In this document: piece by piece, positions 11,975 through 63,990 of the stretch
How positions within the stretch are numbered: the stretch's first letter is position 1
Layout of the letters: each line of letters opens with the position of its first letter
Origin: Candidatus Omnitrophota bacterium
GTDB lineage: Bacteria; Omnitrophota; Omnitrophia; Omnitrophales; Aquincolibacteriaceae
Assembly: GCA_043821445.1 (NCBI GenBank)
Contig: JBDRCT010000003.1
Span: forward strand, 5,440 to 69,439
Direction of reading: 5' to 3'
Length of the DNA: 64,000 bases
Program-made: the position numbers and the translations under genes
Notes under the pieces: generated by a model
Databases searched by the model: none
What the model saw: only the letters and a program-made list of their open reading frames with translations
Told to the model about the DNA's origin: nothing

Positions 11975-14440
11975 CTACGTCGCTTTTTCAAAAGAGATCC
12001 TTTCCCCACGGATCTCCGCTATGATCTTATCACCCTCTTCGAACTTCCCGCCAAGGATCTCTTCAGCCAACACATTTTCAATATAACGCTGGATCGTCCT
12101 TTTAAGAGGGCGGGCCCCGAACACCGGATCATACCCCTGATCGATCAAGAACTTCAGAACCTCGTCGGAAAGGATCAGCTCCATTTTCTTGTCCTTGAGA
12201 CGATCATGCACTTCCTTGAGCTCGATATGAATGATCTGCTCCAGATCCTGGCGCGTCAACGGATGAAAAACGATCGTGTCATCGACGCGGTTCAGGAATT
12301 CCGGTCGGAAAACTTTTTTGGTTTCATCCAGAAGCTTTTGCTTCAATCCTTCGTAATCCATTTCGTCTTTTTTGGGCGCAAATCCGAGATCGCCTTGTTT
12401 CCGGATAAGATCCGCCCCGACATTCGAGGTCATGATCAAAATGGTATTTCGGAAATCCACCTTGCGACCGAAAGAATCCGTCAAACGCCCCTCTTCCATG
12501 AGCTGGAGAAGGATATTGAAAACATCCGGATGTGCCTTCTCGATCTCATCCAGGAGCACCACCGAATACGGACGCCGACGCACCTTCTCCGTCAGTTGCC
12601 CGCCCTCTTCATAGCCCACATACCCTGGAGGCGCCCCCACGAGACGCGAAACGTTGAATTTTTCTCCATACTCGGAGCAATCCACCACGACCACCGCATC
12701 TTGATCCCCGAACATGAAATCCGCAAGCGCACGGGCGAGAAGCGTCTTGCCGACACCGGTCGGGCCCAAAAAAATAAATGATCCTATGGGCCTACGAGGG
12801 TTACGAAGCCCGGAACGGGACCGGCGTACCGCGTGCGATATCGCACGGATCGCTTCGTCCTGGCCGATGATCTTCCTATGAAGCTCGTCTTCCATTTTTA
12901 GAAGACGCGCCGTTTCTTTTTCTTCGAGACGTGAAAGAGGCACGCCGGTCCACTTGGAGACCACGAATGCGATGTCCTCTTCCGTCACCTGGACTTCAAC
13001 CTCGGATTTGGATTCCTTCCAGCTCTTTTTCATTTTCTGGAGTTCTTCCTTGGCCTTACGTTCATCATCCCGCATTTTTGCGGCTTTTTCGAAATCCTGG
13101 GCCTTGATCGAAGCCTCTTTCTCGCGCCGAAGGGACTCGATCTCGGTTTCAGCTTTTTTCAAGTCCTTGGGCATGGTCGTAACGGACAATCTCGCGCGCG
13201 AAGCTGCTTCATCGATAATATCGATCGCTTTGTCCGGAAGGAACCGGCCGGAAATGTAGCGATCGGAAAGTTTCGCCGCAGCCTCAAGCGCCTCGTCAAG
13301 GATCTTCACCCGGTGATGAGCTTCATATTTGTCACGCAATCCCCTCAAGATCAGGATCGTATCTTCCACGGACGGAGGTTCCACGACCACGGTTTGAAAA
13401 CGGCGGGCCAGAGCCGCATCCTTTTCAATGTATTTCCGATATTCGTCAAGTGTCGTCGCCCCGATACACTGGATCTCACCGCGGGAAAGAGAGGGCTTCA
13501 AGATATTCGAAGCATCGATCGCACCCTCGGCGCCTCCGGCGCCGACCAGGGTATGCAATTCATCAATAAAGATCATGACATTTTCTGTGCGACGGATCTC
13601 ATCCATCACAGCTTTGATACGCTCCTCGAATTGGCCACGGTATTTCGTCCCCGCCACCATTAACGCAAGATCGAGCACGACGATTCGCTTATCCGCCAGG
13701 ATCTCCGGCACATCGCCGCCGATGATCATCTGTGCAAGACCTTCCACGATCGCAGTCTTTCCGACCCCTGCTTCCCCCAAAAGCACGGGGTTATTTTTTG
13801 TGCGCCGCGCGAGGATCTGGATCACACGCTGGATCTCGTCTTGTCGGCCTACAACTGGATCGAGTTTCCCTTCTCGAGCGAGTTGTGAAAGATCGCGACC
13901 AAACGCGTCAAGCGCGGGCGTTTTTGTCTTGGACTTCCCACCGGGACCGCCACCGGGACCGCCCATAGCGGATGACGGCATTCCGGGTTCCGCGTTCGGC
14001 GTCGTGGAACCCAAAAGTTTGATTACCTCGGAACGCACCTTGTTGAGGTCAAGCCCCACGTTCATGAGCACATGGCTCGCCACGCCCTCACCCTCTTTGA
14101 TGAGACCTAGAAGCAAATGCTCGGTCCCGATATAGTTATGCCCGAGGCGACGCGCCTCATCCATCGCCAACTCGATTACTTTCTTGGCCTTGGGCGTGAA
14201 CGGGATGTCTCCGGAAACAATCGTGCTGGGTCCGAATTGGACAAGTTTTTCAACTTCCAAGCGGATGGTATCAAGCGACAGTCCGAGATTCTGGAGTACC
14301 GCCGCCGCAACACTTTCCCCTTCCTTGATGAGCCCGAGCAAAATATGCTCCGTCCCGATGTAATCGTGATTGAATCTTTTGGCTTCTTCCTTGGCGAGAA
14401 TGATGACCTTACGAGCTCTTTCCGTGAAACGATCGAACAT
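11975..14440 (-). CDS. clpC: ATP-dependent Clp protease ATP-binding subunit ClpC
   Basis: 821 aa. Duplicated Clp_N repeats ([13 protein letters not shown]..., [12 protein letters not shown]...). Two AAA+ modules (GEAGVGKT; GPTGVGKT). UVR-like linker. Follows mcsA-mcsB. Confidence 0.95.
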
Positions 14441-14506
14441 GGTGAACCTCCAAATTAATTAAACCGTTGTAAGACTGACTATAATAACGGAGATTTATGC
14501 CATTCT

Positions 14507-15571
14507 CTAAAGAATGACTTTTGCAAAATATTCCCGAATACGAGAAGCACGACGGGCATCCCGCTCCGTGGCGCTAAGTTCTTTACCGCTCATCTTTTGA
14601 AGATGTGCCGGTTGAATCAAAAGAAAAAGCTGGTTCAAATCCGTGTGTGTCACCTGTTCTTCCAGGACCCCGACATCGATCCCGACCTGCACAAGTGACA
14701 AGAGCTGAATCGCCTCAGAGGAGGACATCATACGCGCGGACTTGAGCGTCGCCAGAGCCCGCCAAATCTGATCTTCCATTTTGCTTTTGCGTTTTTTCTT
14801 GAGATACTCCCGGGCCTCGCGTTCATGCGTGATCACCTGCCGAATGACGCCCTCAAGATTCGAAATGATCTCTTCTTCCGGCTGGCCCAATGTGATCTGG
14901 TTTGAAAATTGAAAAAAATTCCCACTCGCCTGTGTTCCTTCGCCGTAAAGTCCGCGCACTGCGAGATTAAGTTTTGAAAGAGCCTGCAACACTTTATGGA
15001 CCTGTTTGGTCAGAACAAGACTCGGCAGATGCAGCATACATGAGGCCCGGATGCCCGTTCCGACATTTGTCGGGCAAGCTGTCAAATACCCAAGCGTCCC
15101 GTCGAAGGCATAATCCAGGTCTTTTTCAAGTTCACTGTCGATCTCATCGGCAATACGCCAGGTTTCGACGAGATTGAGACCCGACTGGAACACCTGGAGC
15201 CGTAAATGGTCTTCTTCGATCATCATCAGACTCACCATTTCATCCGGCGTGATCGCGACCGCGCTTCTACCTTCTTCCAAAAAAAGCTCCCGGCTGACCA
15301 AATGGCGTTCGAGAAGAAATTTCCGGTCAAGTTCAGAAAGTTCCGTTGAAGAAATGAAGTAAACATTTTTAAGGAAATTCGATCTTTTGACCGCCTCTCC
15401 GACCTCTTGAATGATCGCAATGCGCTGCCCGCCCGCAAGGCGGCTTAAAAAAGGATATTTCGCGAGATTGCGCGCCATACGCAGGCGCGAGCTGATCACC
15501 ACGTCACTTTCAGGCCCCGTAGCGCGAAGCCAATTTACCGGCTGGTCAATAAAACGATCGATCTCATTCAT
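14507..15571 (-). CDS. mcsB: protein arginine kinase McsB
   Basis: Phosphagen-kinase active site CPTNVGTGIRAS. Plausible start is MNEIDRF at 15571; the tracked ORF extends further 5' into mcsA. Overlaps the mcsA stop by 8 nt. Confidence 0.85.
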   Translation of the reverse strand: MNEIDRFIDQPVNWLRATGPESDVVISSRLRMARNLAKYPFLSRLAGGQRIAIIQEVGEAVKRSNFLKNVYFISSTELSELDRKFLLERHLVSRELFLEEGRSAVAITPDEMVSLMMIEEDHLRLQVFQSGLNLVETWRIADEIDSELEKDLDYAFDGTLGYLTACPTNVGTGIRASCMLHLPSLVLTKQVHKVLQALSKLNLAVRGLYGEGTQASGNFFQFSNQITLGQPEEEIISNLEGVIRQVITHEREAREYLKKKRKSKMEDQIWRALATLKSARMMSSSEAIQLLSLVQVGIDVGVLEEQVTHTDLNQLFLLIQPAHLQKMSGKELSATERDARRASRIREYFAKVIL

Positions 15572-16085
15572 CTTTCGGTCTCTTTGCCTTTTTGAACTTG
15601 GCCAAAGCTTGTTTGATCTCGTCCCGCAAACGCGCCGCTTCCTCGAATGCTTCTTCTTGAATGCTTTTGCGGAGTTTTTCCTGTAGCTGGCGCAGGTCGT
15701 GGACGCTGCGCGTTTCCTTCGGAATACGGGATGGTTTTTTACCAACATGAGAACCTGAACGCTGGACCTGTTTGATGACGGTCGCAAGAGGTTTTTGAAA
15801 AGAAACATAGCATCCAGCGCAGCCGAGACGCCCGTTCTTGGCGAAATCCTCATAATTCATACCGCAATCTTTGCAGACAAGCGGTATTTTCTTGCCTAAA
15901 GCGTCTGGCGCCGTCTCAAGACCTGGCATACCGGCCAGCAGATCCCCAAAGTTGAAATAGGTCTTGAACTCCGTGCCTTTTTCTTCGGCGCACGCTTCGC
16001 AAATATGAACCTCGGCCATTTGGCCGTTGACGATCTCTGTCAGATGGATGGTCGCTTCTTTTGTACCGCAAATATTGCAGATCAT
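15564..16085 (-). CDS. mcsA: McsA (zinc-finger/UVR activator of McsB)
   Basis: Start MICNICGT...CEACAEEKG. Two CxxC pairs, second Cys cluster CKDCG...CAGCY, C-terminal UVR-like EEAARLRDEIK. Start ATG at 16085 is preceded by GGAG. Confidence 0.8.
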   Translation of the reverse strand: MICNICGTKEATIHLTEIVNGQMAEVHICEACAEEKGTEFKTYFNFGDLLAGMPGLETAPDALGKKIPLVCKDCGMNYEDFAKNGRLGCAGCYVSFQKPLATVIKQVQRSGSHVGKKPSRIPKETRSVHDLRQLQEKLRKSIQEEAFEEAARLRDEIKQALAKFKKAKRPKDE

Positions 16086-52986: not shown

Positions 52987-55900
52987 TTACGCGGCAGACT
53001 GGATCGCCTGCAACGCCTGCATTGCGATTACCAGCATCTTGCTCAAAGCATCCTGGCTGAACGAACGGAAACCATTTTCATCTTTCTCTCCGTTGAGTAC
53101 TTCCTTGATCGCATCGACCTCGCTCGCGCTCAGGATTCGCTGGGACACGATGGACGCAAGGGTCGAAGTCGCGACCCGGCGGCTCACATCCGTACTATAA
53201 GGCTCCTTGATCATGAGCCCCCTGCCTGTATCCGTCTTGAACACTTTCAAAAATTGATCGGAACCCATAAAGACATAACCCAGTGGCCCTCTGGAAATCG
53301 CCGGCATTGTTTTCATTTTCGAGGTGATAAAATTATTCAGAGCAGTTTCCGGATTATTCTTATCGACCACGATGATATCAAAACGTTTTTCGGCGTTTAA
53401 TTCCTTAAGAGTTTTTGCTAATCGCTGCTCCATTCCCCTCTTTCGTTGCTCTGCTGCCGCAACTTCAGCCGCACCGTCCGCCATCAACACCATAACCTTC
53501 CCTTGCATTTTATTAACCAATGTCCCGAGATCTGCGGGCTCAATGATCGCATCCGCAGGCACGAGCTCAATCTCAAGCCCCTGCTTGTCCATGATTTCAA
53601 TTTGGGTCGTTTTCCCAAATAATGCTCCTGCCAACCCAGTAAAGACATCCCGAATAGCGGTGACCCAACCCGCGGTTTTCGCAGCGCTCGCGTTCGCAAG
53701 TTGCACAATAACATCAGCCATTTGCTCCGCCTTCAACCCGTCATCGAACACCATCCCCGCCACCGCCGCTACAATGACCGGCCCTTTCGCTCCCTGAACC
53801 TCCAGATTATTCACTGCCTCGACATTTGGCCCAATTTTAGCCTGCTCGACAACCAACATATCAGCAGGTGAGATTGCTTCACGAACGACCCTCATCTCGG
53901 AGCGTTGAGTTCCCGGCTCAGCTCCCGGAGATTCGGTTTCAAGGCGCTTTCCAACGGCCTTGAGTTCAGCCGCAACACGAGTTTTTTCGATTTTTGCTGC
54001 TTCAGCTTCGCGCACCTCAGAACGTTTCTCCGTCCCAGGCGCTCCACCCGGCATCTGATCGGTAAATTCCCTTTCAACAAAATCGTTCAACTTATCGATG
54101 CTGACTTCCTCCAGATCCCTGAAGGTCGCGAACATCTTCCTGGCCCCTTCCGCCCAGGATTCCTTTACTTTGGGCGGCTCACTCTCCCAAATAGCCAACA
54201 AGTCACTCACCGTCCTCCAGCGGGCATACTCATTTTCTCCCCTCCCGCCGTTCATCTTGAACCGGTCATAAATGGCGCCGGGATTGGCTTCCAAAACATA
54301 TTTTTGTATCGGGATGTACTTACCCTTAATTCCTGACAAGACCGCGAACCCTTTTTGCTGCGCCAGCCCCAACGCAACACAGAGAAGTGCTAATCCCGGA
54401 TGGAGCCCAATGCGCTGCGGAAAGGTCTCCCGAATCTGTTCCTTTTGATTAAGCCCGCCCGTGATCACAGCCACTCTCAATGCTTCACCGTTCTCTGCCT
54501 GCTGAGTATCAACGCCGATGCGATAGATCCATTGGGTCCTCTCACCTATCGCCTCCCCGATGGCTATGAGAACCCCGGAGGAGCCTTTCCCGAAGCCATA
54601 GCGCATTTCGATCAAGTAGGGTGTGCCACTGATACGCGCGATCTGTACGGATTGACGTCTCCGGAACTCCGGAGCGAACATCTGTTCCATTTTTTTCATA
54701 TTCTGTGTCGCCAAAACTAATTTTGTTTTGCTATCAAGTCCCGGCGGCAGATTGTAAAAAAACCGCCCTTGAGGATTCTGATCGATACGATATTGGCTCA
54801 AATAGGTCCTGAAAAAATCCTCGAAAACTTCGGCGGGAACGTTCCGCGGCACGACCTGGTTCTCCATCATCCACTCGAACAAGCTCCCGGTCTGCTTCTC
54901 TTCGATCTCCATGCTTTCCCGGAGCTTTTGGGACAAAAGCTTTAGCAGCTCATCGCAGGGTTTTTTTGTGAATGCCCGGATCCTGAAAATATAGTCCAGG
55001 GTTTGTTGGACCAGATCGAGCCTAAGCGGCTCACCCGCCGAAGGACTCAAAAGCCATGAAGCAATCTCATTCGCCTTCTCGTTCGAAAGGATCTGCCGTT
55101 TCTTGACGGAAACCGTCAGATACCCCAAAATATCCTCCCGCGTCTCGGAGCGAGCTGAAGGTATGGCCTCTTTAAGATGACCTGCGAGAGACTCCAAATA
55201 GGCTTCATCCACTTGCGGACCGACCCAATCGGGAGACTTTGTGAGATAGACTTTAGGATCGGGCTGGAGACCGTAGCGGTTCAGGAAATCCAAAAGCGGT
55301 GTGCTTTGTTTCCCGAAGTTATTTGGGTCGGTGTGATACCCTGCAGTTCCTAGTTCCTTTCTCATGTTCACCGTAATCCACTCCGGCGGCGACTCTTGGA
55401 GCGAATAAGCGTCAGCACAAACGGTCACGAATGTTTCGGTTCCAAAGATCTTCCCGGCCAGTTGATCCAGCTCCTTACCCTTCAGTTCAACGATCACAGG
55501 CCTGAACCACCATCCTATCTTTTGCATCGTCCAAATACGAATCGCCACAGGGCCCAGGATCTTTTCTGATGGCGGAACATGGACAAAATAAGTGATAAGT
55601 CCTTCGCGTAAAGCACGCGACCCCCAGTTCCCTTCGTTAATGGGTACTAAATATTGCTGCGTCCACGTTCCAACATCCGGATGGGCGTCAAAATTCACCA
55701 GGATCGGCAAAGCGGGGTTGGCCTCCCCCCGTTGTTTTCTCTCGCGGAACCGCTCCCGGAGATAATCTAAGACCCCGTCATGGGTCTCGATCGTGACCAC
55801 TTCTGTCCCAACTTTCGTCAGGACTCCTTTTCGCATTTCGGAGCGGGAAACGGGCTTTTCAGCAATGAGTTCGGAATAAGGCACGCGACGGCCGCCGAGT

Positions 55901-58900
55901 TCGTCTAGGGATTGTCTGGCTTTTTCGCGCTGAGCCTTGTAGAAAAGAAAAAGAAGCGCGGGAGCTTTGGCGGGGTTGAATCTGGCAATCTTACCGTATT
56001 TCCCTTCGTCCACGTCCATGGCCTTTTCGAGATCTTCCGGGGAAACCGCCTTTACCACATCCGAAAGCCACGCCGCCATCTTCATAACATTATCGATCTT
56101 TTGAAGAGGAGTGAGTTGAGAAGCGAGTCCGTTGAGACGCTCCAGGTCTGCTTGCTGGGCAATGATCAACAGAAGTATGGGAGATGTCGTTTCCGGAGTA
56201 CCCGGGATTTTTTTAAGTTCCTCTTCTAACTTCAACCCCGCCTTGTCAAATGTTTCGATGGTGGTGGGCGGACCACGATTCCTTTGGACATCCCCATGAA
56301 AAACTTCCACTATTTCGTCCGGGGCCACCCGGAAGATGATCTCTCCCCTTTCAAGCATCTCTGGGACCGTCTCTTCATCTTTGACCCCAAAAAGTTCGCG
56401 GGCGCTCCCGGAAACGGCTGTAATGGCCTGATCTCCGCCTTTATAGCCAACCCCGTCCATGTTTTGATATTCATGGAAGGCTCTCGGGATCGCCTGTCCC
56501 TTGTAACCCAGAACAATGAGGTGTCTCGTTTCCTTAATATCAACTTTCCGCGCTGCCTCCTGTCCCGCTCCTTCGGTTAAGAGACCTGTAAGGGTGTCGA
56601 TGATCTTCGGGTCCCTTTTTTCAGAGCTCGATGCCCGTTCTGCGAGCTTTTTCGACACCTCTTCGATCTTGTCCCGAGTCACTTCCTTTTTAACAAAAAT
56701 CCCGACTTTCACCTGATTCCTTTTCTTTTTAGCTTCCGAAAGTGCGTCATTGGCCAGCCACATCGCGCACTCATCAAAAAGTTCTATGCGCTCAGGCCTT
56801 AAAGTTTCTACGTCATCCTTTATATAAGTCCAATAATTGCCGCCGTCCTCGTGCTTAACGTCTTTCATCACCTCTTTAAAATAGTCCAGCACCCCGGACT
56901 GTTCCGGGAATTCAGGGTTCCCGGCAGCAGGAGCCGCTCCGATAGAAATAGTGAGAAATCCCCATTTTTGGGGAGTTGCGTTTTCAGATTGGATCTTTTC
57001 AAATCGGATCTCGTGAAGCTGATCGCCTTCCAGATTCAGTTTCGTATGAAGATCTCGCAAAAAGTCCTGCCATTTTCCCTCAGCATCTAACTTCCTCCGA
57101 TCGACACGGATGTATGTGCTCCCCGCATAAAGCACTGCGCTAAGTACGGAAGCATATTCTTTTGATTCGAAAATCTTCGCTTCATTTTCAGTAAGCGTTT
57201 TCTCCACTTCTAAAACCGCATAGCGTCCAAAAAATTCTTCATTGAGGTCTCGCAGGAAATTCTCCAGATCTTCTTGGGTAACTTTCCTTGCGGGAACGAA
57301 TATGATTTCATCGCCTCCAACACCCCGGTAAACTTCTAGGCCATATTTTTTGGCGATCACAAGTATCGTTTTCCGGTAATCGAGAACGGGTGAGTCTTTG
57401 GGCGTGATAAGATGCTCACCCGATCTTTCCAGGCTCATGACCCCCACGATGCCTTTCCCGCCGAGTGCGAGATTCTTGGCGCCGATCTTATCGAAATCCG
57501 ACATATAAAAACGGAAATTTTGAAGATCCGTCACACTTGGGTGTGCCCGCAGATATTTCAAACGTTGTTCCTTTCCGTCGTCCTGTGTTCCCCAGCCGTC
57601 CGATGATTTGAAAGCGTCCGGTTCAACACGAATTCCCAATTTTTCAGCTGTCTCAGGCGTCAATCGCGTGCTTGCGGGAATGGTAACCGTTTCAATTTCT
57701 CCGGTTTCCGAATTCCGGTGCGTGATCTTGAGGCCACCCTCTACTGCTACCTGGAGGTTCAGCAAATCTGCTACTGCCGCTTTGTGACTTGTCGGCGGAC
57801 TCGAATAGACATCGACAGCGCCGCCTTCTCTCATGGCCACTTCCAGCCCCCGAAGCTGCTCATTGATCTCGTCGATCTTCTCCTGTGTTATTTTCTCTGT
57901 CCGCATCTCGGAGCGTGGGAAAGCCATCAAAGCCGTTGCCGGTGTTTGCTGGGTGAACCGGTCCCCGGTATCGCCGCCATCAACAAAAAGAGCCTCCTTG
58001 ATGTCATAGGTGGTGTGCCAGTTTTCTAATGCCTCTATAAGCTTAGCCGTGGTCGGTCCCGTCCAACCAAAAATATCCCAGCCAAAAATATCCAGAGTGT
58101 GGACCCTTCCGCTTGGATCTACCCCCACAACGCTTTTCCGGCCTGAGAAAATACTTTTATGCCAATTCTCAATATTAGGATTCAAATTTCCTTCCGTGAT
58201 AGCCATGGGACCGGCCTGAAAACCTTGCGCCCATTGCTCTTTCGGGTAATTCTCCGGACGAAAGCCTTCTGCTGGCCTGATAAGCACGTCTCCGTTCCTG
58301 TTCAGTAGAAAAATTCCTTTCAACATGGCTGATCCGTTTTCTATGAATGCCCTATCCTGAGCATCCTCGCTCAACCGGAACCACCCTATGGCTCTCCTGC
58401 TTATCTCCCTAAAAGGATTGGCGTTCGAGACGTAGGTCCACCCCTCAGCCAGCAGTTGTTTGATATCCTTCCGTTCCACAATGCGGAACTCATATTTTTT
58501 GGGATCGAATTCGCGGGTCCCTTCGCTACTCCAATGATCGACCGTTGCCTTCTGTGCCACCCCAATCCCAAGAGACAAACCAAGAGCCCCCAGCAACAAG
58601 TTCCGCCTTGAGAAGATTTGAACCTCTTCCTGCCGCATCTCGGAACGCCCCTTGCCTTTGGGCGTGGCAGCTTTTCCGGCTTTTGCTTTTTGTGGACTGG
58701 GTTTCACGGTTTTCGGAGGGGTCTTTAAAATAGGATCCAGTTGTCGCGCGTACTGATTGAGCTCTGGGGTCAACCGTTCTACGGTATCTTTCGCATCGCG
58801 AACGGCCTTTGCCGCCTCGTTTTTGATCATTTCCCATTCGGCCGCCGTGTACCCTTTGTTGGAATAACCTTCCAGTTTTTTAAGCATTCGGCCGGCCTCA

Positions 58901-61900
58901 CCGAGATACCCCGTTTCAAGTTTTGCAAGGTTCCTTAGATTAATAGAAATGCGGTTCCTATATTGTTGAAGCTTCTTAAGATTGCGTTCTTTAGCGGGTT
59001 TATCCATTTCTCCCCGAATTGCTTCCGCAAGCGACTCGGCATCCCGGATCCTGCGAAGCGAGTTGGTAAGGGGCACGTTGACATGTTCGACCTGGTAGAG
59101 ATCCACCGTGAGATTCTTGAAAAGTGCGGCCGTTTGCTTCCGGTAACTGTCGCTTAAGGCTTCGCCCATCGTTCGTTCCACCAACTCTGCCGCAAACGCT
59201 TTAACGGCAACCGCTTTTAGGTAGGTCGCAAGCCCGTAATGAAGGTCGGCTTCCTCCCCCTCGTTCCTGGGCTTTGCGGTATCTCCCAGGTAAGGCGTAT
59301 TGTATTTCCTGTGGAACCGCGGCCACCCATCCTTCTCCCCGGGCCGGCCGGCAACATCCTGGGCTGAGGGTTCCATACGAATGAGGATAAACAGCCGCCA
59401 CAGGAGATGCTGCAACGTCGGGTCCGACGCGATACTTTCACGAACCCTGGCCGTTTCCGGTCTCCCCCTCTTTTTCTTTCTTATATTGTCTAAGTCCAGG
59501 GTGTTATATGTTGGGGACTTAAGCGCCTTATAAAAAGCGTCCACGCCGGGCGTCCAATTCTTTTCGATGAGCTGCCTAACAGGACTGCCTTCAGGAGCCA
59601 TCATTGCTTCGCGAAAAACGTCGACCGCCGATTGGGCTTCGATCTGGAAGGGGCCGGCCGCAGGACCTTTTTTCTTTTGATAGGGTTCGAACGTCGGATT
59701 TTCGAGATAGGTCAGATAGATCGCAGCGAACGCCAGATGCTGGATGCGCTCGGCACGTTCTTTTTCAGAAATGCCGGGATAAAGTGTCCTCTCGGAATCC
59801 CTTAAGAAAACCATGGTGTCCAGGTAGTGACGGACAATACGCTGCATCCGTTCGTCCTGTATATTCTCCGTATCGATCGCCGTCAAATCGCCTTGCAGCG
59901 CTTCAAGATCAAATGGGGTAAGTGCCCTCACCGGCGCGACGAGGGCCGTACTGACCGTCGAAGGTTTGCCTGGCAGCAATGCATTGTGAAACACGTAATA
60001 GACCGCCCCCCCAATCAGCAACACCAATGACAGTGTACCGATCACAAGCGTTCGTTTGATACGGGCAAGTTCGGACTTGGGAATTATGATCCTTAGCCGT
60101 ACTTTATCCTCATCCCGAATTTCGGAGCGGGAATTCTGAACGGCCCAATTGATGACTGCCTGGGACAGTTGACCGGGATAGGCGTTGATCAGGCCGGAGC
60201 TCGATATGCTGAAGACAACAACACTGTCTGGAACGGGCGGCGTTTTGTAACCGTCCGAATTGGGGTCGTATCGTGTTACCGCCAGCGGCACAGAGGCTGC
60301 CTTCGCGGGATCATATTTTGGGGGGTCGAAAACATAATATCGGGTTTTGAAAAATTCGGCGGTTTCAACGCGGGTAACGTTCTCCTCCGCCAAAAAGCTC
60401 CTGCTTCCAGCCAAACCCTGCTGGTAATGCGCCATATGGATCAATTCGTGGAGAAGGGTCCCTGTAAATATCTCCCATGCCGCGTTCCGGTCTTTTAGCA
60501 CCCAATCCAGAGCGCCCTGATCGACCGCGATAAGCTGCGAGTACGCCCGCCCACCTGCCCCACCTCCGGGCCTGTCTGTGCTATTGGGACTGACAAAGAC
60601 ATGATTTTGCCAATTGGGATCTGCCAGCAGGTCCCGGACAACGGGATCTCTGCTATTGGGCGCCATCGCCGCGATCTCTGCCCACGCTTCTTCCAGGACC
60701 TTTTTCGCTTCAGCCGGGAGATCACGGAATGCGGTATATCCAACCGGTATATCGCTCGGTGCAACTACCGAGAGGCCCCGCGCCCCCTGGCTGCAGGCCG
60801 TTCCCGCGGTCATCACAAACGCTGCAACAGGCGCGGTCCTCGCCCAAAACACCGGATTCGAAAAGTTTAGCGATGCCGCGAGAAGTACTAATGAGGCGTT
60901 CCGTTTTAATTTTGCGGAAACTCCCCGCACCCTAGGGGCAGAAGTCTCTACCTTGGCCTGCCGGCCCGCAGCGATCCATGCTTCATCCCAAACCCGGCGA
61001 ATCTCCTCTTCACGTTTTTCCAGGCCTGGAATTACATCATAAATGAACACGGCCTTTTCATCCCGCATCTCGGAGCGGCCACTAAACAACTCCGGATGTT
61101 TTCGGAGTATCCTATCGATCATCGGGCGGGCTGCTTGTTCCGCAAGCAGGGATCTTCTTATCCTTTTGTATCTTTCGATAAGCTTCGCACGAACTTCCAG
61201 TGAAACCCGCTGATCGCCCACTAGTTGGAGAAACTTCATGTTCTCTCTTGAAGCGCTAAAAAGGTCGTCCACGGACCCGTCCTCATTGAACCTGTCCCAA
61301 TGGTCATTCTTTTTGTTTTCTTCGCCGGCCAAACCCGCTAAAACGTTAATCGTTGTTTCTTTCCCGGCAGATCGCAACATCGCGGCTAATGTGGCCTTAA
61401 AATCTTCCTTATGCGCTCCCCGGTCGTCGAGGAGGGCCGCGTCCAACGCACTAAAGGCAGCAATGGGATCAGGGTCTTCCCCAAGCATCCGGATCGCCTG
61501 CCCTAAAGCCTTCCCATAAGTCAATTCCCGACGCTTGACCTTCTCCTCGAGCCAGAAAAAAAAGTCTTTTCGAAATTGTTCCCCACGTCCCGGCTCCCGA
61601 CTTAGTTGATCCATTTCGGTCAAGGCTTGGATATAAACCTCATCCATCGTTTCGGGCGTGGAACCACGGATCAGCTCCTTCCAGTGCGCCTCCATCTCCC
61701 GAAAAGCTTCGGAGTCCAAAGGACTGGCAGGTGACGACCTTGGACCTTCCGTTCGAGGGATCGCTGGGGAGACTTGACCTGCGTCGGGAGCTTTTTCGAG
61801 GAGTTCCTCCAGCCGCGCGATCTCGGCATCCATGCCGGCAAGAACTTCTTCTTTTGTAGCGATCGGGTCGATCCGACCGCTTGCGCCATTGAACTGGATC

Positions 61901-63990
61901 CCGCCCTTGTTAAACGCCAGATGACCGGGATCGCCCTCGTCCACATCAATGATAAAAACCCGGTTGTTTGCGCGAAATAATTTCTTCAAGTGGATATGTG
62001 CACCAACAATTCCGGCACAGCCAAGTCTCGTCAAGTAATTATCAAGAACAGCTTCATTGACCCGGGGCTCGGCACCGTCAACGGAGGAGCCGAAGAATTG
62101 ATCAATCCAGTCTTTTTTCTTGGCCCAAAATATATCTTTTGCGCTCAAAAAATACCCTGTCAGATGATCCTGATTGGCTTTTATTTCCAACCTCGGATCG
62201 TTCTCTAACCCCTTTTGAATGGCCGACCATTCTTCCCCAAGCCTCTCCAATGCTTCCCGGTCGATCGTGGGATTTCCGTCCTTGTTCATGGGAATACCGG
62301 CATGGACATGAAGGAACCCGCGCTCGTCCTCGGCAAAAAGTTTGAAATTCCGAACCATCCAGAGAGCCAGCTCTTGAACAGAGGAAAGATCCCGGACCAG
62401 CCAATCCGCTGCATAACCGCCAACCTTCTGTTCTGCTTCATTCATTTCCTTTAATGACTCTAAGAGCATTCTTTCGTCACCTGTCTTGCGTGCCTGGCTA
62501 TATTTTTGGATTGCCCGTCGATATTTAATTGCTGCTTGATTTGCCGCCTCGACTTCTCCCGGCCGGAATGGAAATCCAAACTCCTTGAGCGTTGCACAGG
62601 CGCCATTGATAATCCAATCCGTAAACGTACTCGGATCCTTTAATAGAACGGATTCGATCATAAAAACATCGTGGTTCCCGAGGAATAGGTCAACCTTGAT
62701 ATTGGGATGATCTTGGGTAAGTTGGACCAGTTCCTGAAAGATCTCCCAGACCCTTTTGTTTTGGCCTCCGCGGTCAAATCCGTCTCCGTGACCCATGATG
62801 TGAAGGGGCTTCCCGGTCCTGGCAGCTTCCTTTGCCTCCGACAGGATCGCTTCCAGATCCCCCACTTTCCCGTGCTTATCCCCGAATGTTAATATCTCGG
62901 GAATTTCACGGCCCTCCGCATCACGACCTGTTGCAATACGCTCCTGGGAACCTTTCAGGTAGTCGATCCTTTTTCTGTAATACTCTTTCGTTCCTGGCAC
63001 CTCCCGCATTTCGGAACGGGTAACGGGAGGCTGTTGTTCTTCGGCTTTTGGCGCCACCGTTGATCCGGCATTTATGTTAAGTTCTGCTAGAGCATTAATT
63101 AATGCATTGATCCGCGCGGATCTTTCCGCGTCTAGGCGATCTACATTTTGTTCTTTGACTACTTTTAAAGCCTGCAGGACCGTCGCTCCTAGAGCCTGTT
63201 GCCGTGTCCGTATCAAGCTCAAAACATCTTCCGGTTTTCCCCCAAGGACGCGCTGAAGATCCTGGGGATCGATCGAAGCCACATCGCGTACGGCTTGAAC
63301 CAGGAACTCAGGACCCGCTTCACTCAACGCTTTCAACACCAAGGGACCATCGAATGAGAACGGCGTACCGATCGGCTGGATTCCGGCAGCATTGGTCAGG
63401 TCATAGAGGACATAGTAGCGGCGTCCGTCGATCGTGGAAATACCGACATTATGGTCCAGTTTAAAATCGGTGGCCCCGGTAAGCGCCAAAAACGCCAGGA
63501 TCTTCTCGATCCCCGAAGTACGCGGGTCAGCCAACTCCGGCAAAGTCAGATCGTTTGCATCACGGGACAAAATGGCGGTCACAGAATTCAGAGAATTGAT
63601 GTCGTAGCGCAAACCCATAATCTGCGCGTTCCAATATCTGGAAAATTTTTCGGGCATTGATAAATCTTCCACAGAGATCTCGGTCCAGCGCGGTATGTTT
63701 ACACCCGCAAGCGCTGCTAACTGATACCCTCTCTTTTCTTTCTGCATTTCTGAAGGTGTGTCCAGTTTTAGGTACCATTTTTCATTCGTGGTCCTGTCGT
63801 TGACGTACCAGGCGTATTCCGGAGCTCTTTTCAAAACCTCTAAATCGACCGCTTTGGGAAACACCGCCGCGGCTCCCCCTTGATCCCGCACTTCGGACCG
63901 GGAAAGAACTTTCTTCAAACCCAAGTTGAGTTTGTGTTTTAACTCCTCCGTGAATTCCTCCGGGATGATCTTTCCCGTAGGCAACTTCAC
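52987..63990 (-). CDS. giant 3,667-aa multi-enzyme polyprotein; modules separated by conserved R-S-E-[MVIT]-R junctions
   Basis: Uninterrupted 11,004-nt ORF. Junction copies at aa 32, 326, 973, 1289, 1783, 2027, 2717, 2948, 3324 and 3364.
Modules:
- aa 36-325: kinase-like (TDFKLDHNVGIS...YVLYDL).
- aa 330-972: PPP metallophosphatase (GDxHG-like HIMGHGDGFDRGG; GNHD; VHAGIP; GAHIH).
- aa 977-1288: HExxH metallopeptidase (TLLHELIHMAHY).
- aa 1293-1782: TM signal-anchor plus possible lysozyme-like region.
- aa 1787-2026: Tat-like signal (SRRNLLLGALGLSLGIGVAQKA) plus phosphodiester-glycosidase-like (ALFVDGGDTG).
- aa 2031-2716: GGDEF-like palm (SDFDKIGAKN...RGVGGDEIIF).
- aa 2721-2947: DAHxD motif (LVNFDAHPDVG).
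- aa 2952-3323 and aa 3368-3667: unknown. Confidence 0.8.
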   Translation of the reverse strand: MKLPTGKIIPEEFTEELKHKLNLGLKKVLSRSEVRDQGGAAAVFPKAVDLEVLKRAPEYAWYVNDRTTNEKWYLKLDTPSEMQKEKRGYQLAALAGVNIPRWTEISVEDLSMPEKFSRYWNAQIMGLRYDINSLNSVTAILSRDANDLTLPELADPRTSGIEKILAFLALTGATDFKLDHNVGISTIDGRRYYVLYDLTNAAGIQPIGTPFSFDGPLVLKALSEAGPEFLVQAVRDVASIDPQDLQRVLGGKPEDVLSLIRTRQQALGATVLQALKVVKEQNVDRLDAERSARINALINALAELNINAGSTVAPKAEEQQPPVTRSEMREVPGTKEYYRKRIDYLKGSQERIATGRDAEGREIPEILTFGDKHGKVGDLEAILSEAKEAARTGKPLHIMGHGDGFDRGGQNKRVWEIFQELVQLTQDHPNIKVDLFLGNHDVFMIESVLLKDPSTFTDWIINGACATLKEFGFPFRPGEVEAANQAAIKYRRAIQKYSQARKTGDERMLLESLKEMNEAEQKVGGYAADWLVRDLSSVQELALWMVRNFKLFAEDERGFLHVHAGIPMNKDGNPTIDREALERLGEEWSAIQKGLENDPRLEIKANQDHLTGYFLSAKDIFWAKKKDWIDQFFGSSVDGAEPRVNEAVLDNYLTRLGCAGIVGAHIHLKKLFRANNRVFIIDVDEGDPGHLAFNKGGIQFNGASGRIDPIATKEEVLAGMDAEIARLEELLEKAPDAGQVSPAIPRTEGPRSSPASPLDSEAFREMEAHWKELIRGSTPETMDEVYIQALTEMDQLSREPGRGEQFRKDFFFWLEEKVKRRELTYGKALGQAIRMLGEDPDPIAAFSALDAALLDDRGAHKEDFKATLAAMLRSAGKETTINVLAGLAGEENKKNDHWDRFNEDGSVDDLFSASRENMKFLQLVGDQRVSLEVRAKLIERYKRIRRSLLAEQAARPMIDRILRKHPELFSGRSEMRDEKAVFIYDVIPGLEKREEEIRRVWDEAWIAAGRQAKVETSAPRVRGVSAKLKRNASLVLLAASLNFSNPVFWARTAPVAAFVMTAGTACSQGARGLSVVAPSDIPVGYTAFRDLPAEAKKVLEEAWAEIAAMAPNSRDPVVRDLLADPNWQNHVFVSPNSTDRPGGGAGGRAYSQLIAVDQGALDWVLKDRNAAWEIFTGTLLHELIHMAHYQQGLAGSRSFLAEENVTRVETAEFFKTRYYVFDPPKYDPAKAASVPLAVTRYDPNSDGYKTPPVPDSVVVFSISSSGLINAYPGQLSQAVINWAVQNSRSEIRDEDKVRLRIIIPKSELARIKRTLVIGTLSLVLLIGGAVYYVFHNALLPGKPSTVSTALVAPVRALTPFDLEALQGDLTAIDTENIQDERMQRIVRHYLDTMVFLRDSERTLYPGISEKERAERIQHLAFAAIYLTYLENPTFEPYQKKKGPAAGPFQIEAQSAVDVFREAMMAPEGSPVRQLIEKNWTPGVDAFYKALKSPTYNTLDLDNIRKKKRGRPETARVRESIASDPTLQHLLWRLFILIRMEPSAQDVAGRPGEKDGWPRFHRKYNTPYLGDTAKPRNEGEEADLHYGLATYLKAVAVKAFAAELVERTMGEALSDSYRKQTAALFKNLTVDLYQVEHVNVPLTNSLRRIRDAESLAEAIRGEMDKPAKERNLKKLQQYRNRISINLRNLAKLETGYLGEAGRMLKKLEGYSNKGYTAAEWEMIKNEAAKAVRDAKDTVERLTPELNQYARQLDPILKTPPKTVKPSPQKAKAGKAATPKGKGRSEMRQEEVQIFSRRNLLLGALGLSLGIGVAQKATVDHWSSEGTREFDPKKYEFRIVERKDIKQLLAEGWTYVSNANPFREISRRAIGWFRLSEDAQDRAFIENGSAMLKGIFLLNRNGDVLIRPAEGFRPENYPKEQWAQGFQAGPMAITEGNLNPNIENWHKSIFSGRKSVVGVDPSGRVHTLDIFGWDIFGWTGPTTAKLIEALENWHTTYDIKEALFVDGGDTGDRFTQQTPATALMAFPRSEMRTEKITQEKIDEINEQLRGLEVAMREGGAVDVYSSPPTSHKAAVADLLNLQVAVEGGLKITHRNSETGEIETVTIPASTRLTPETAEKLGIRVEPDAFKSSDGWGTQDDGKEQRLKYLRAHPSVTDLQNFRFYMSDFDKIGAKNLALGGKGIVGVMSLERSGEHLITPKDSPVLDYRKTILVIAKKYGLEVYRGVGGDEIIFVPARKVTQEDLENFLRDLNEEFFGRYAVLEVEKTLTENEAKIFESKEYASVLSAVLYAGSTYIRVDRRKLDAEGKWQDFLRDLHTKLNLEGDQLHEIRFEKIQSENATPQKWGFLTISIGAAPAAGNPEFPEQSGVLDYFKEVMKDVKHEDGGNYWTYIKDDVETLRPERIELFDECAMWLANDALSEAKKKRNQVKVGIFVKKEVTRDKIEEVSKKLAERASSSEKRDPKIIDTLTGLLTEGAGQEAARKVDIKETRHLIVLGYKGQAIPRAFHEYQNMDGVGYKGGDQAITAVSGSARELFGVKDEETVPEMLERGEIIFRVAPDEIVEVFHGDVQRNRGPPTTIETFDKAGLKLEEELKKIPGTPETTSPILLLIIAQQADLERLNGLASQLTPLQKIDNVMKMAAWLSDVVKAVSPEDLEKAMDVDEGKYGKIARFNPAKAPALLFLFYKAQREKARQSLDELGGRRVPYSELIAEKPVSRSEMRKGVLTKVGTEVVTIETHDGVLDYLRERFRERKQRGEANPALPILVNFDAHPDVGTWTQQYLVPINEGNWGSRALREGLITYFVHVPPSEKILGPVAIRIWTMQKIGWWFRPVIVELKGKELDQLAGKIFGTETFVTVCADAYSLQESPPEWITVNMRKELGTAGYHTDPNNFGKQSTPLLDFLNRYGLQPDPKVYLTKSPDWVGPQVDEAYLESLAGHLKEAIPSARSETREDILGYLTVSVKKRQILSNEKANEIASWLLSPSAGEPLRLDLVQQTLDYIFRIRAFTKKPCDELLKLLSQKLRESMEIEEKQTGSLFEWMMENQVVPRNVPAEVFEDFFRTYLSQYRIDQNPQGRFFYNLPPGLDSKTKLVLATQNMKKMEQMFAPEFRRRQSVQIARISGTPYLIEMRYGFGKGSSGVLIAIGEAIGERTQWIYRIGVDTQQAENGEALRVAVITGGLNQKEQIRETFPQRIGLHPGLALLCVALGLAQQKGFAVLSGIKGKYIPIQKYVLEANPGAIYDRFKMNGGRGENEYARWRTVSDLLAIWESEPPKVKESWAEGARKMFATFRDLEEVSIDKLNDFVEREFTDQMPGGAPGTEKRSEVREAEAAKIEKTRVAAELKAVGKRLETESPGAEPGTQRSEMRVVREAISPADMLVVEQAKIGPNVEAVNNLEVQGAKGPVIVAAVAGMVFDDGLKAEQMADVIVQLANASAAKTAGWVTAIRDVFTGLAGALFGKTTQIEIMDKQGLEIELVPADAIIEPADLGTLVNKMQGKVMVLMADGAAEVAAAEQRKRGMEQRLAKTLKELNAEKRFDIIVVDKNNPETALNNFITSKMKTMPAISRGPLGYVFMGSDQFLKVFKTDTGRGLMIKEPYSTDVSRRVATSTLASIVSQRILSASEVDAIKEVLNGEKDENGFRSFSQDALSKMLVIAMQALQAIQSAA

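Follow-up and report, generated by a model that had tools for sequence, protein, structure and literature searches.

The DNA analysed here (the window) comprises 64,000 nucleotides from a Candidatus Omnitrophota bacterium (GenBank assembly GCA_043821445.1, contig JBDRCT010000003.1, positions 5,440 to 69,439). Its right-hand part is occupied by a minus-strand open reading frame (ORF) of 3667 amino acids (aa; 52987–63990), the frame of which extends past the right window end. By searching with the whole ORF, it was identified as the C-terminal 3667 aa (aa 2604–6270) of P0001, a 6270-aa hypothetical protein from a Candidatus Omnitrophota metagenome-assembled genome. Ten RSExR linkers divide the part inside the window into modules M1–M10, and the subject of this report is module M3, which corresponds to interval 60127–61062 (aa 977–1288 of the ORF). 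The original prediction, made from the sequence of the window, was that M3 is an HExxH zinc-metallopeptidase module with a candidate self-processing activity. A plus-strand reading of the interval was ruled out, as the frame is full of stops, and the plus-strand ORFs of the region are shadows of the minus-strand gene.

The layout of M3 was verified by translation. Counted from linker to linker, the module is 316 aa long (ORF aa 972–1287; 60130–61077, minus strand) and is bounded by RSEMR and RSEIR; these are its true bounds, in place of aa 977–1288. The predicted sequence TLLHELIHMAHYQQG was present, with HELIH at ORF aa 1181–1185 (60436–60450, minus strand). The module and its boundaries contain the following features:

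61063–61077, minus strand: upstream linker RSEMR (ORF aa 972–976), which bounds M3.
60913–61062, minus strand: hydrophilic leader of 50 aa (DEKAVFIYDVIPGLEK...), the start of which resembles the start of the homologous L001/P0008 module (see below).
60793–60912, minus strand: signal-like region of 40 aa, KLKRNASLVLLAASLNFSNPVFWARTAPVAAFVMTAGTAC, ending in a lipobox-pattern Cys at aa 1066 (60793–60795).
60130–60792, minus strand: predicted mature domain of 221 aa (ORF aa 1067–1287; P0001 aa 3670–3890), zincin-like by alignment and predicted structure.
60427–60450, minus strand: HELIHMAH (ORF aa 1181–1188), the HExxHxxH of which is invariant in all relatives.
60364–60387, minus strand: EENVTRVE (ORF aa 1202–1209), invariant and placed where the next predicted helix starts.
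60115–60129, minus strand: downstream linker RSEIR (ORF aa 1288–1292), which opens M4; a transmembrane segment follows about 25 aa later.

HELIH is the only HExxH in the 6270 aa of P0001 (0.11 expected), which by itself is weak evidence. Relatives of M3 were sought by an exhaustive HMMER scan that covered 1.84 billion (1.84e9) representative proteins and returned three only: P0008 (E 5e-45), a further polyprotein with linkers, present as a fragment, and P0009 and P0010 (E ~1e-14), proteins of 1.4 thousand amino acids (kaa) with N-terminal Sec-type signal peptides and repeat-rich regions but without linkers. A scan of genomes contributed L001, an Omnitrophota polyprotein that is complete at 2839 aa and has an M3-like module, and L002, which is near-identical to P0010. 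In an alignment of four sequences (A1; 28–47 % identity), residues T112, H115, E116, H119, H122, G129, E136, E137, N138, T140, R141 and E143 (domain numbering) are invariant, and HExxHxxH...EEN(V/I)TR(V/I)E forms an invariant signature, the densest conserved block of the domain. Because the residues of HExxH...EEN are invariant in all relatives at this level of identity, the HExxH of M3 is, on the alignment, a conserved functional site and not a chance pattern.

Known families gave little. The best Pfam match was Tox-MPTase3 (PF15639; 26 residues, 14.4–15 bits, E 0.03–0.04), which lies below the 25-bit gathering threshold and was obtained with two of the four family members. M3 had no match in NCBIfam, PHROGs or PDB sequence searches, and PDB sequence and profile searches gave nothing significant, the nearest being a 25-residue hint to TTHA0227 (E 1.9); the earlier remark that the sequence flanking the motif resembles no known peptidase was borne out to this extent. 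Word-indexed searches of 5.8 billion proteins with M3 and with A1 returned zero matches and likewise failed to retrieve the protein of M3 itself. A single-sequence genome scan with M3 and a viral contig scan both returned nothing. The M3 domain is probably the founder of a tiny, very rare and previously unannotated family, with the signature HExxHxxH...EENxTRxE; this family is new and zincin-like, and no Pfam, NCBIfam or PDB entry covers it. Further, unrelated HExxH motifs stand beside the M3-like domain at aa 1009 of P0008 and at aa 1015 and 1299 of P0009 (HEAGH, HEAKH and HEVTH), and it is possible that these two carriers are multi-peptidase secreted proteins. P0010 has a weak, sub-threshold RHS-repeat match, and its M3-related domain lies near the C-terminus of the secreted protein.

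Structure prediction with AlphaFold2 on A1 gave a model with a predicted local distance difference test score (pLDDT) of 77.7 and a predicted template modelling score (pTM) of 0.79; a single-sequence run (pLDDT 33.8) was unusable. The model consists of helices 27–42 and 50–56, strands 65–68, 81–84 and 87–91, helices 92–100, 102–124 and 133–148, and a small C-terminal beta region (domain numbering). The three strands directly precede helices 92–100 and 102–124, a sheet-then-helix layout of the zincin type. HExxHxxH is placed in helix 102–124, in agreement with the helical context claimed for the motif, and EEN..E in helix 133–148, at the start of which E136 and E137 follow H119 by 17–18 residues, as in gluzincins.

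Comparison of the model with known structures by using Foldseek gave no significant match (E ≥0.015, template modelling (TM) score at most ~0.47). The best plausible PDB matches were the minigluzincins abylysin (4jiu; E 0.26, TMt 0.46) and selecase (4qhi; E 0.27), and YbeY (1oz9) was among the weak ones. In BFVD, an uncharacterized protein of a Tetraselmis virus ranked first (E 0.015, probability 1.00), and the named matches below it were mostly SprT-like, M48 and IrrE zincins (best probabilities 0.82–0.87). M3 resembles minimal zincins (the minigluzincins proabylysin, 4jiu, and selecase, 4qhi; SprT/WLM; IrrE/ImmA; the M48 core) in its small domain, with an HExxH helix after a short beta-sheet and then an acidic second helix. 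It differs from them in its distinctive HExxHxxH...EENxTRxE signature, extra C-terminal beta region, N-terminal helical part and predicted lipoprotein or Tat (twin-arginine translocation) export, and the Foldseek scores are not significant. Likewise, the polymorphic toxin metallopeptidases of Tox-MPTase3 share with it the best Pfam match, around the HExxH helix, and the domain placement seen in P0010; the match, however, amounts to 15 bits over 26 residues against a cutoff of 25, and the window showed neither an immunity gene nor a toxin architecture.

On the model, the M3 domain is probably a minimal gluzincin-like metallohydrolase, for which zinc binding and peptide-bond hydrolysis are the predicted activities. 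H1181 and H1185 are putative metal ligands and E1182 is a putative general base. The predicted structure, which had been recommended as a way of locating the third ligand, yielded a zincin-like core and brought out E1202 and E1203 as the best candidates; H1188 and E1209 are invariant too. The extended metzincin motif was not found: in HELIHMAHYQQ, the third residue after the second His is His and not Gly, and the sixth is Gln and not His or Asp. As neither the Gly nor the third His/Asp of HExxHxxGxxH is there, M3 is, judged by its motif, not a metzincin. Of the predicted zinc-metallopeptidase module, a conserved zincin-like domain stands, by sequence and by model.

The HExxH...EEN block might alternatively not be a peptidase site at all, and M3 might be a metal-dependent hydrolase of other substrates (for example, cell-wall or lipid-linked ones) or a non-catalytic metal- or ligand-binding domain. 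No peptidase family or structure was matched significantly, and HExxH-like helices occur in non-peptidase enzymes too; YbeY is among the weak fold matches. However, the invariant Glu of HExxH, the invariant acidic helix downstream and the strand–helix–helix order are hallmarks of zincin peptidases, and the proteins that match the fold best are mostly zincin peptidases. This alternative is regarded as unlikely.

Export signals were then compared across the family. The lipobox pattern, following the PROSITE rule, is [LIVMFWSTAG]2-[LIVMFYSTAGCQ]-[AGS]-C, with a positive n-region and an uncharged hydrophobic stretch ahead of it. A single match to this pattern exists in the whole 3667-aa ORF: AAFVMTAGTAC, which lies 94 aa after the linker and follows KLKR and WAR. 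At the corresponding position the L001/P0008 homologue carries a Tat motif and a lipobox (SRRAFLK...FLGAGC), with a weak Pfam TAT_signal match. M3 and all of its known relatives lie behind export signals, namely a lipobox Cys, Tat plus lipobox, or Sec, and the M3 product is, as far as its sequence indicates, probably lipid-anchored at Cys1066. The two modules that follow are similarly equipped, so that three modules in succession, M3 to M5, have export or membrane signals; the Tat-type signal of M5 (SRRNLLLGALGLSLGIGVAQKA) starts 13 aa past the linker, in the stretch RSEMRQEEVQIFSRRNLLLGALG... of the window.

This run could be taken to mean that M3 is a maturation peptidase for itself and its co-exported neighbours, trimming leaders or propeptides (its own extension of ~95 aa, M4, M5) after export and leaving the linkers alone. 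The M3-like module of L001 likewise precedes signal-bearing modules, and the conserved hydrophilic leader is otherwise unexplained. Against this, M4 occurs without M3 in the related polyprotein P0002, and in P0009 and P0010 the surroundings of the domain are quite different, namely those of repeat-rich secreted proteins. A maturation role is considered quite unlikely.

The repeated linker noted in the original prediction is a real and strongly enriched feature: R[SA]ExR occurs 18 times in P0001 (0.38 expected). The ten copies in the window are:

63886–63900, 63004–63018, 61063–61077, 60115–60129, 58633–58647, 57901–57915, 55831–55845, 55138–55152, 54010–54024 and 53890–53904, minus strand: linkers of the form RSE[MVIT]R.

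Examples of linker peptides are LFSGRSEMRDEKA and VQNSRSEIRDEDK. The codons of the linkers vary synonymously between the copies in P0001; therefore, selection acts on the peptide. A profile of the conserved N-terminal domain of the polyprotein (A2) gave at least 378 metagenome matches, from which 80 further loci were taken (157,233 aa of proteins); in these related carrier proteins R[SA]ExR was found 203 times (8.2 expected). Over 273 sites the linker core is R-[S/A]-E-[V/M/A/L/I]-R, with small residues at −1 to −3 and acidic or small residues after it, and no longer-range conservation was detected around these sites. An internal start codon or Shine–Dalgarno function was rejected: among the 273 sites, less than half have M or V at position 4, where A, L, I and T are frequent as well and Q, S, E and F are represented, and the codons vary synonymously.

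Linkers also mark the borders of exchange. BLAST homology blocks between polyproteins start at a linker, and the order of cassettes is shuffled; P0002 shares M1, M2, M4, M6, M7 and M8 with P0001 (36–68 % identity) and has two unrelated cassettes in the place of M3. A second linker dialect, [AGSR]xSLG, fully replaces R[SA]ExR in some lineages (L030, L049, L055, L063, L069, L070 and P0007); no protein combines the two dialects, and members with the SLG type are dispersed among several N-domain clusters. Units between linkers can be very short: M9 has 40 aa (53905–54024, minus strand), and 34 aa of M7 are left in P0002 (aa 3161–3194), with both ends kept and the middle deleted. Such units may be decayed cassettes or spacer peptides.

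Hydrophobic segments of signal-like or transmembrane-like character are concentrated behind linkers, about threefold within 30 aa. Within 30 aa after a linker such a segment starts in 30 % of cases, compared with 10 % for random positions, and within 60 aa in 47 %, compared with 20 %. Of the eight internal twin-arginine-plus-hydrophobic motifs, all follow a linker at a distance of 8–121 aa and six do so within 35 aa; the carriers of internal Tat-type signals are M5 (58546–58647, minus strand), L010, L017, L036, L075, P0004 and P0006. Because Tat and Sec signals work at N-termini, the linkers would become new N-termini in the cytoplasm before export, and we infer that they are cut there; of the indirect evidence for this, the placement of these signals is the strongest.

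Several observations bear on whether M3 does the cutting. In favour of this, a zincin-like domain is present inside a protein with 18 conserved linkers, exactly one HExxH was found in six of the seven polyproteins first found (0.03–0.12 expected each), and a Tat-type homologue of M3 would fold before export. However, the HExxH modules of the other polyproteins, tried as distant homologues of M3, were rejected, as they have only the motif helix in common with it (hhalign probability <7 %). In the larger sample of 80 carrier proteins with 203 linkers, no M3-like domain was found (hmmsearch, E below 0.01), and HExxH was barely enriched (7 against 3.2 expected). The complete polyproteins L010 (3783 aa, 14 linkers), L017 (3326 aa, 10 linkers), L021 (3539 aa, 9 linkers) and L012 (2883 aa, 7 linkers) have no HExxH, nor does P0006 with its 12 linkers. 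M3 is absent from P0002 through P0007, including P0002 with its six common modules; its relatives occur in the linker-free secreted proteins P0009 and P0010, and M3 bears an export signal of its own. Because linkers occur widely without M3, P0002 lacks it, and M3 and its relatives carry their own export signals, the originally proposed autoprocessing of the polyprotein at RSEMR-type linkers, in cis or in trans, is very improbable, and the embedded metalloprotease-like module is, from these comparisons, not supported as the processing enzyme.

The explanation that we favour, with fair confidence, is that M3 is an exported, probably lipid-anchored, gluzincin-like zinc hydrolase, a rare cargo cassette with substrates outside the cytoplasm. 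The precursor would be cut at its linkers in the cytoplasm by an activity other than M3, and the released M3 product (~35 kDa), taken out of the cytoplasm by a signal of its own, would probably receive a lipid anchor at Cys1066. There the mature domain would work as a small zinc hydrolase of the gluzincin type, with the metal bound by H1181, H1185 and E1202/E1203 (or H1188) and water activated by E1182. Its substrates would be envelope, host or prey proteins or peptides and not the polyprotein linkers, and it would act alongside membrane-anchored M4 and Tat-exported M5. Omnitrophota is a phylum of presumed episymbionts or predators, and M3, if deployed extracellularly in this way, is a candidate envelope- or host-directed effector.

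Some points weigh against this explanation. The fold model was built on just four sequences, and the third metal ligand is at the candidate stage. The hydrophobic region of M3 is only moderately hydrophobic, has no twin arginine and lies unusually far (~55–95 aa) from the presumed new N-terminus. The Tat-type L001/P0008 homologue would fold in the cytoplasm, and activity there before export is conceivable. Cleavage at the linkers is itself read from sequence.

For polyprotein processing the result on M3 is a useful negative, and attention is directed to the conserved carrier domains or to a cytoplasmic protease acting in trans. The only universally conserved parts of the polyprotein family are an N-terminal and a C-terminal domain. 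The N-terminal carrier domain (P0001 aa 1–686, outside the window) starts with a sequence like a signal or anchor and contains the invariant motifs IQxAHA...EG...GGFH; weak Pfam matches were to the ChaN/Tiki superfamily (PF04187) in two of five members (best E 0.0013) and to erythromycin esterase in one of five (E 0.11), and nothing was found in the PDB. This domain is a candidate for the real processing enzyme, although its apparent export signal conflicts with cytoplasmic cleavage. No conserved protease neighbour of the polyprotein genes was found across the 80 loci, and there is no dedicated protease gene within the window. Family members of ~1.0–1.1 kaa (L052, L056, L057, L059, L060 and L061) have no linkers, and because they hold just the conserved N- and C-terminal parts, they suggest that cassettes were inserted into an ancestral carrier protein. 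The C-terminal part ends in a conserved tail, which could serve as a recognition, degradation or secretion signal:

52990–53049, minus strand: conserved C-terminal tail ...QALQAIQSAA-COOH; an ending of the type (hydrophobic)xx(A/S)A is common to nearly all complete members of the family.

The polyprotein system around M3 is a more novel object than the M3 domain. We tentatively describe it as an undescribed bacterial system in which a carrier of ~1 kaa (ChaN/TIKI-superfamily-like N-domain, conserved C-domain and tail) holds up to ~18 shuffled enzyme cassettes, and in which the five-residue sites that bound each cassette, of the form R[SA]ExR or, in other lineages, xSLG, are cut in the cytoplasm to give new N-termini with Tat, Sec or lipoprotein signals. 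M3 would be one of its exported effectors, and the linker motif would supply the cleavage-point information said to be missing for Omnitrophota giant proteins. Given the statistics of the linkers, the shuffled cassettes and the Tat signals immediately behind linkers, the long-standing question of giant-protein cleavage becomes directly testable.

MARTX toxins have conserved N- and C-terminal regions, variable effector cassettes and autoprocessing by a CPD, which is present in every toxin. The system described here is alike in its conserved N/C carrier, its shuffled enzyme cassettes and its short processing-type linkers; it differs in that the zincin module is rare (2 of ~90 proteins), the linker motif is another one, and the cassettes are equipped with Tat, Sec or lipoprotein signals of their own. 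Viral and gingipain-type bacterial polyproteins resemble it in that short sites recur between the functional units of a single long ORF; in those, however, the protease is a conserved core component and cleavage has been shown experimentally, neither of which holds for M3.

Omnitrophota giant proteins are alike in phylum, in their long multi-enzyme ORFs and in suspected post-translational cleavage, whereas P0001, at 6.3 kaa, is smaller, and its family has a ChaN/TIKI-like N-domain. C39 or S8 domains are suspected of cleaving the giant proteins by West-Roberts et al. 2023 (bioRxiv 10.1101/2023.11.21.568195), who state that the cleavage points are unknown and nowhere use the word "linker". A multi-enzyme class of Omnitrophota giant proteins is treated by Nielsen & Lui 2026 (bioRxiv 10.64898/2026.06.07.730766), in a text without the words cleavage, linker or motif. 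Whether and where giant bacterial proteins are cleaved is named as open in bioRxiv 10.1101/2023.11.21.568195 and in a survey of huge proteins (PMC11573180), the latter regarding protease motifs as an open problem. Within the literature collection searched, "RSEMR" gave nothing relevant.

The other features of the gene within the window are:

52987–63990, minus strand: part of P0001 inside the window (aa 2604–6270), divided by ten RSExR linkers into M1–M10; the gene continues beyond the right end.
61078–63018, minus strand: M2, with a calcineurin-like metallophosphoesterase domain (Pfam E 3e-7).
58648–60129, minus strand: M4, with a transmembrane segment and no recognisable family.
57916–58647, minus strand: M5, with a NAGPA-like phosphodiester glycosidase domain (Pfam E 3e-5, just below the cutoff).

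A visual impression of M4 as an SLT-like lytic transglycosylase, based on "E..GPFQIE", was unsupported by Pfam or PDB profile searches.

In a cluster of close relatives (L012, 6410–7150, and 14 other loci), the polyprotein gene is directly preceded by a conserved ORF of ~246 aa, and a second polyprotein gene is present in tandem at 13 loci. The remainder of the window is ordinary bacterial chromosome, with genes for aminoacyl-tRNA synthetases, IspDF, Mla, ClpC and an McsB-like kinase, Def, RNase G and a type IV pilus cluster. At 11975–15853 (minus strand) the ClpC-type AAA+ unfoldase adjoins the ATP:guanido phosphotransferase (McsB-like protein arginine kinase). This pairing, best known from protein quality control in Firmicutes, is notable in an Omnitrophota genome.

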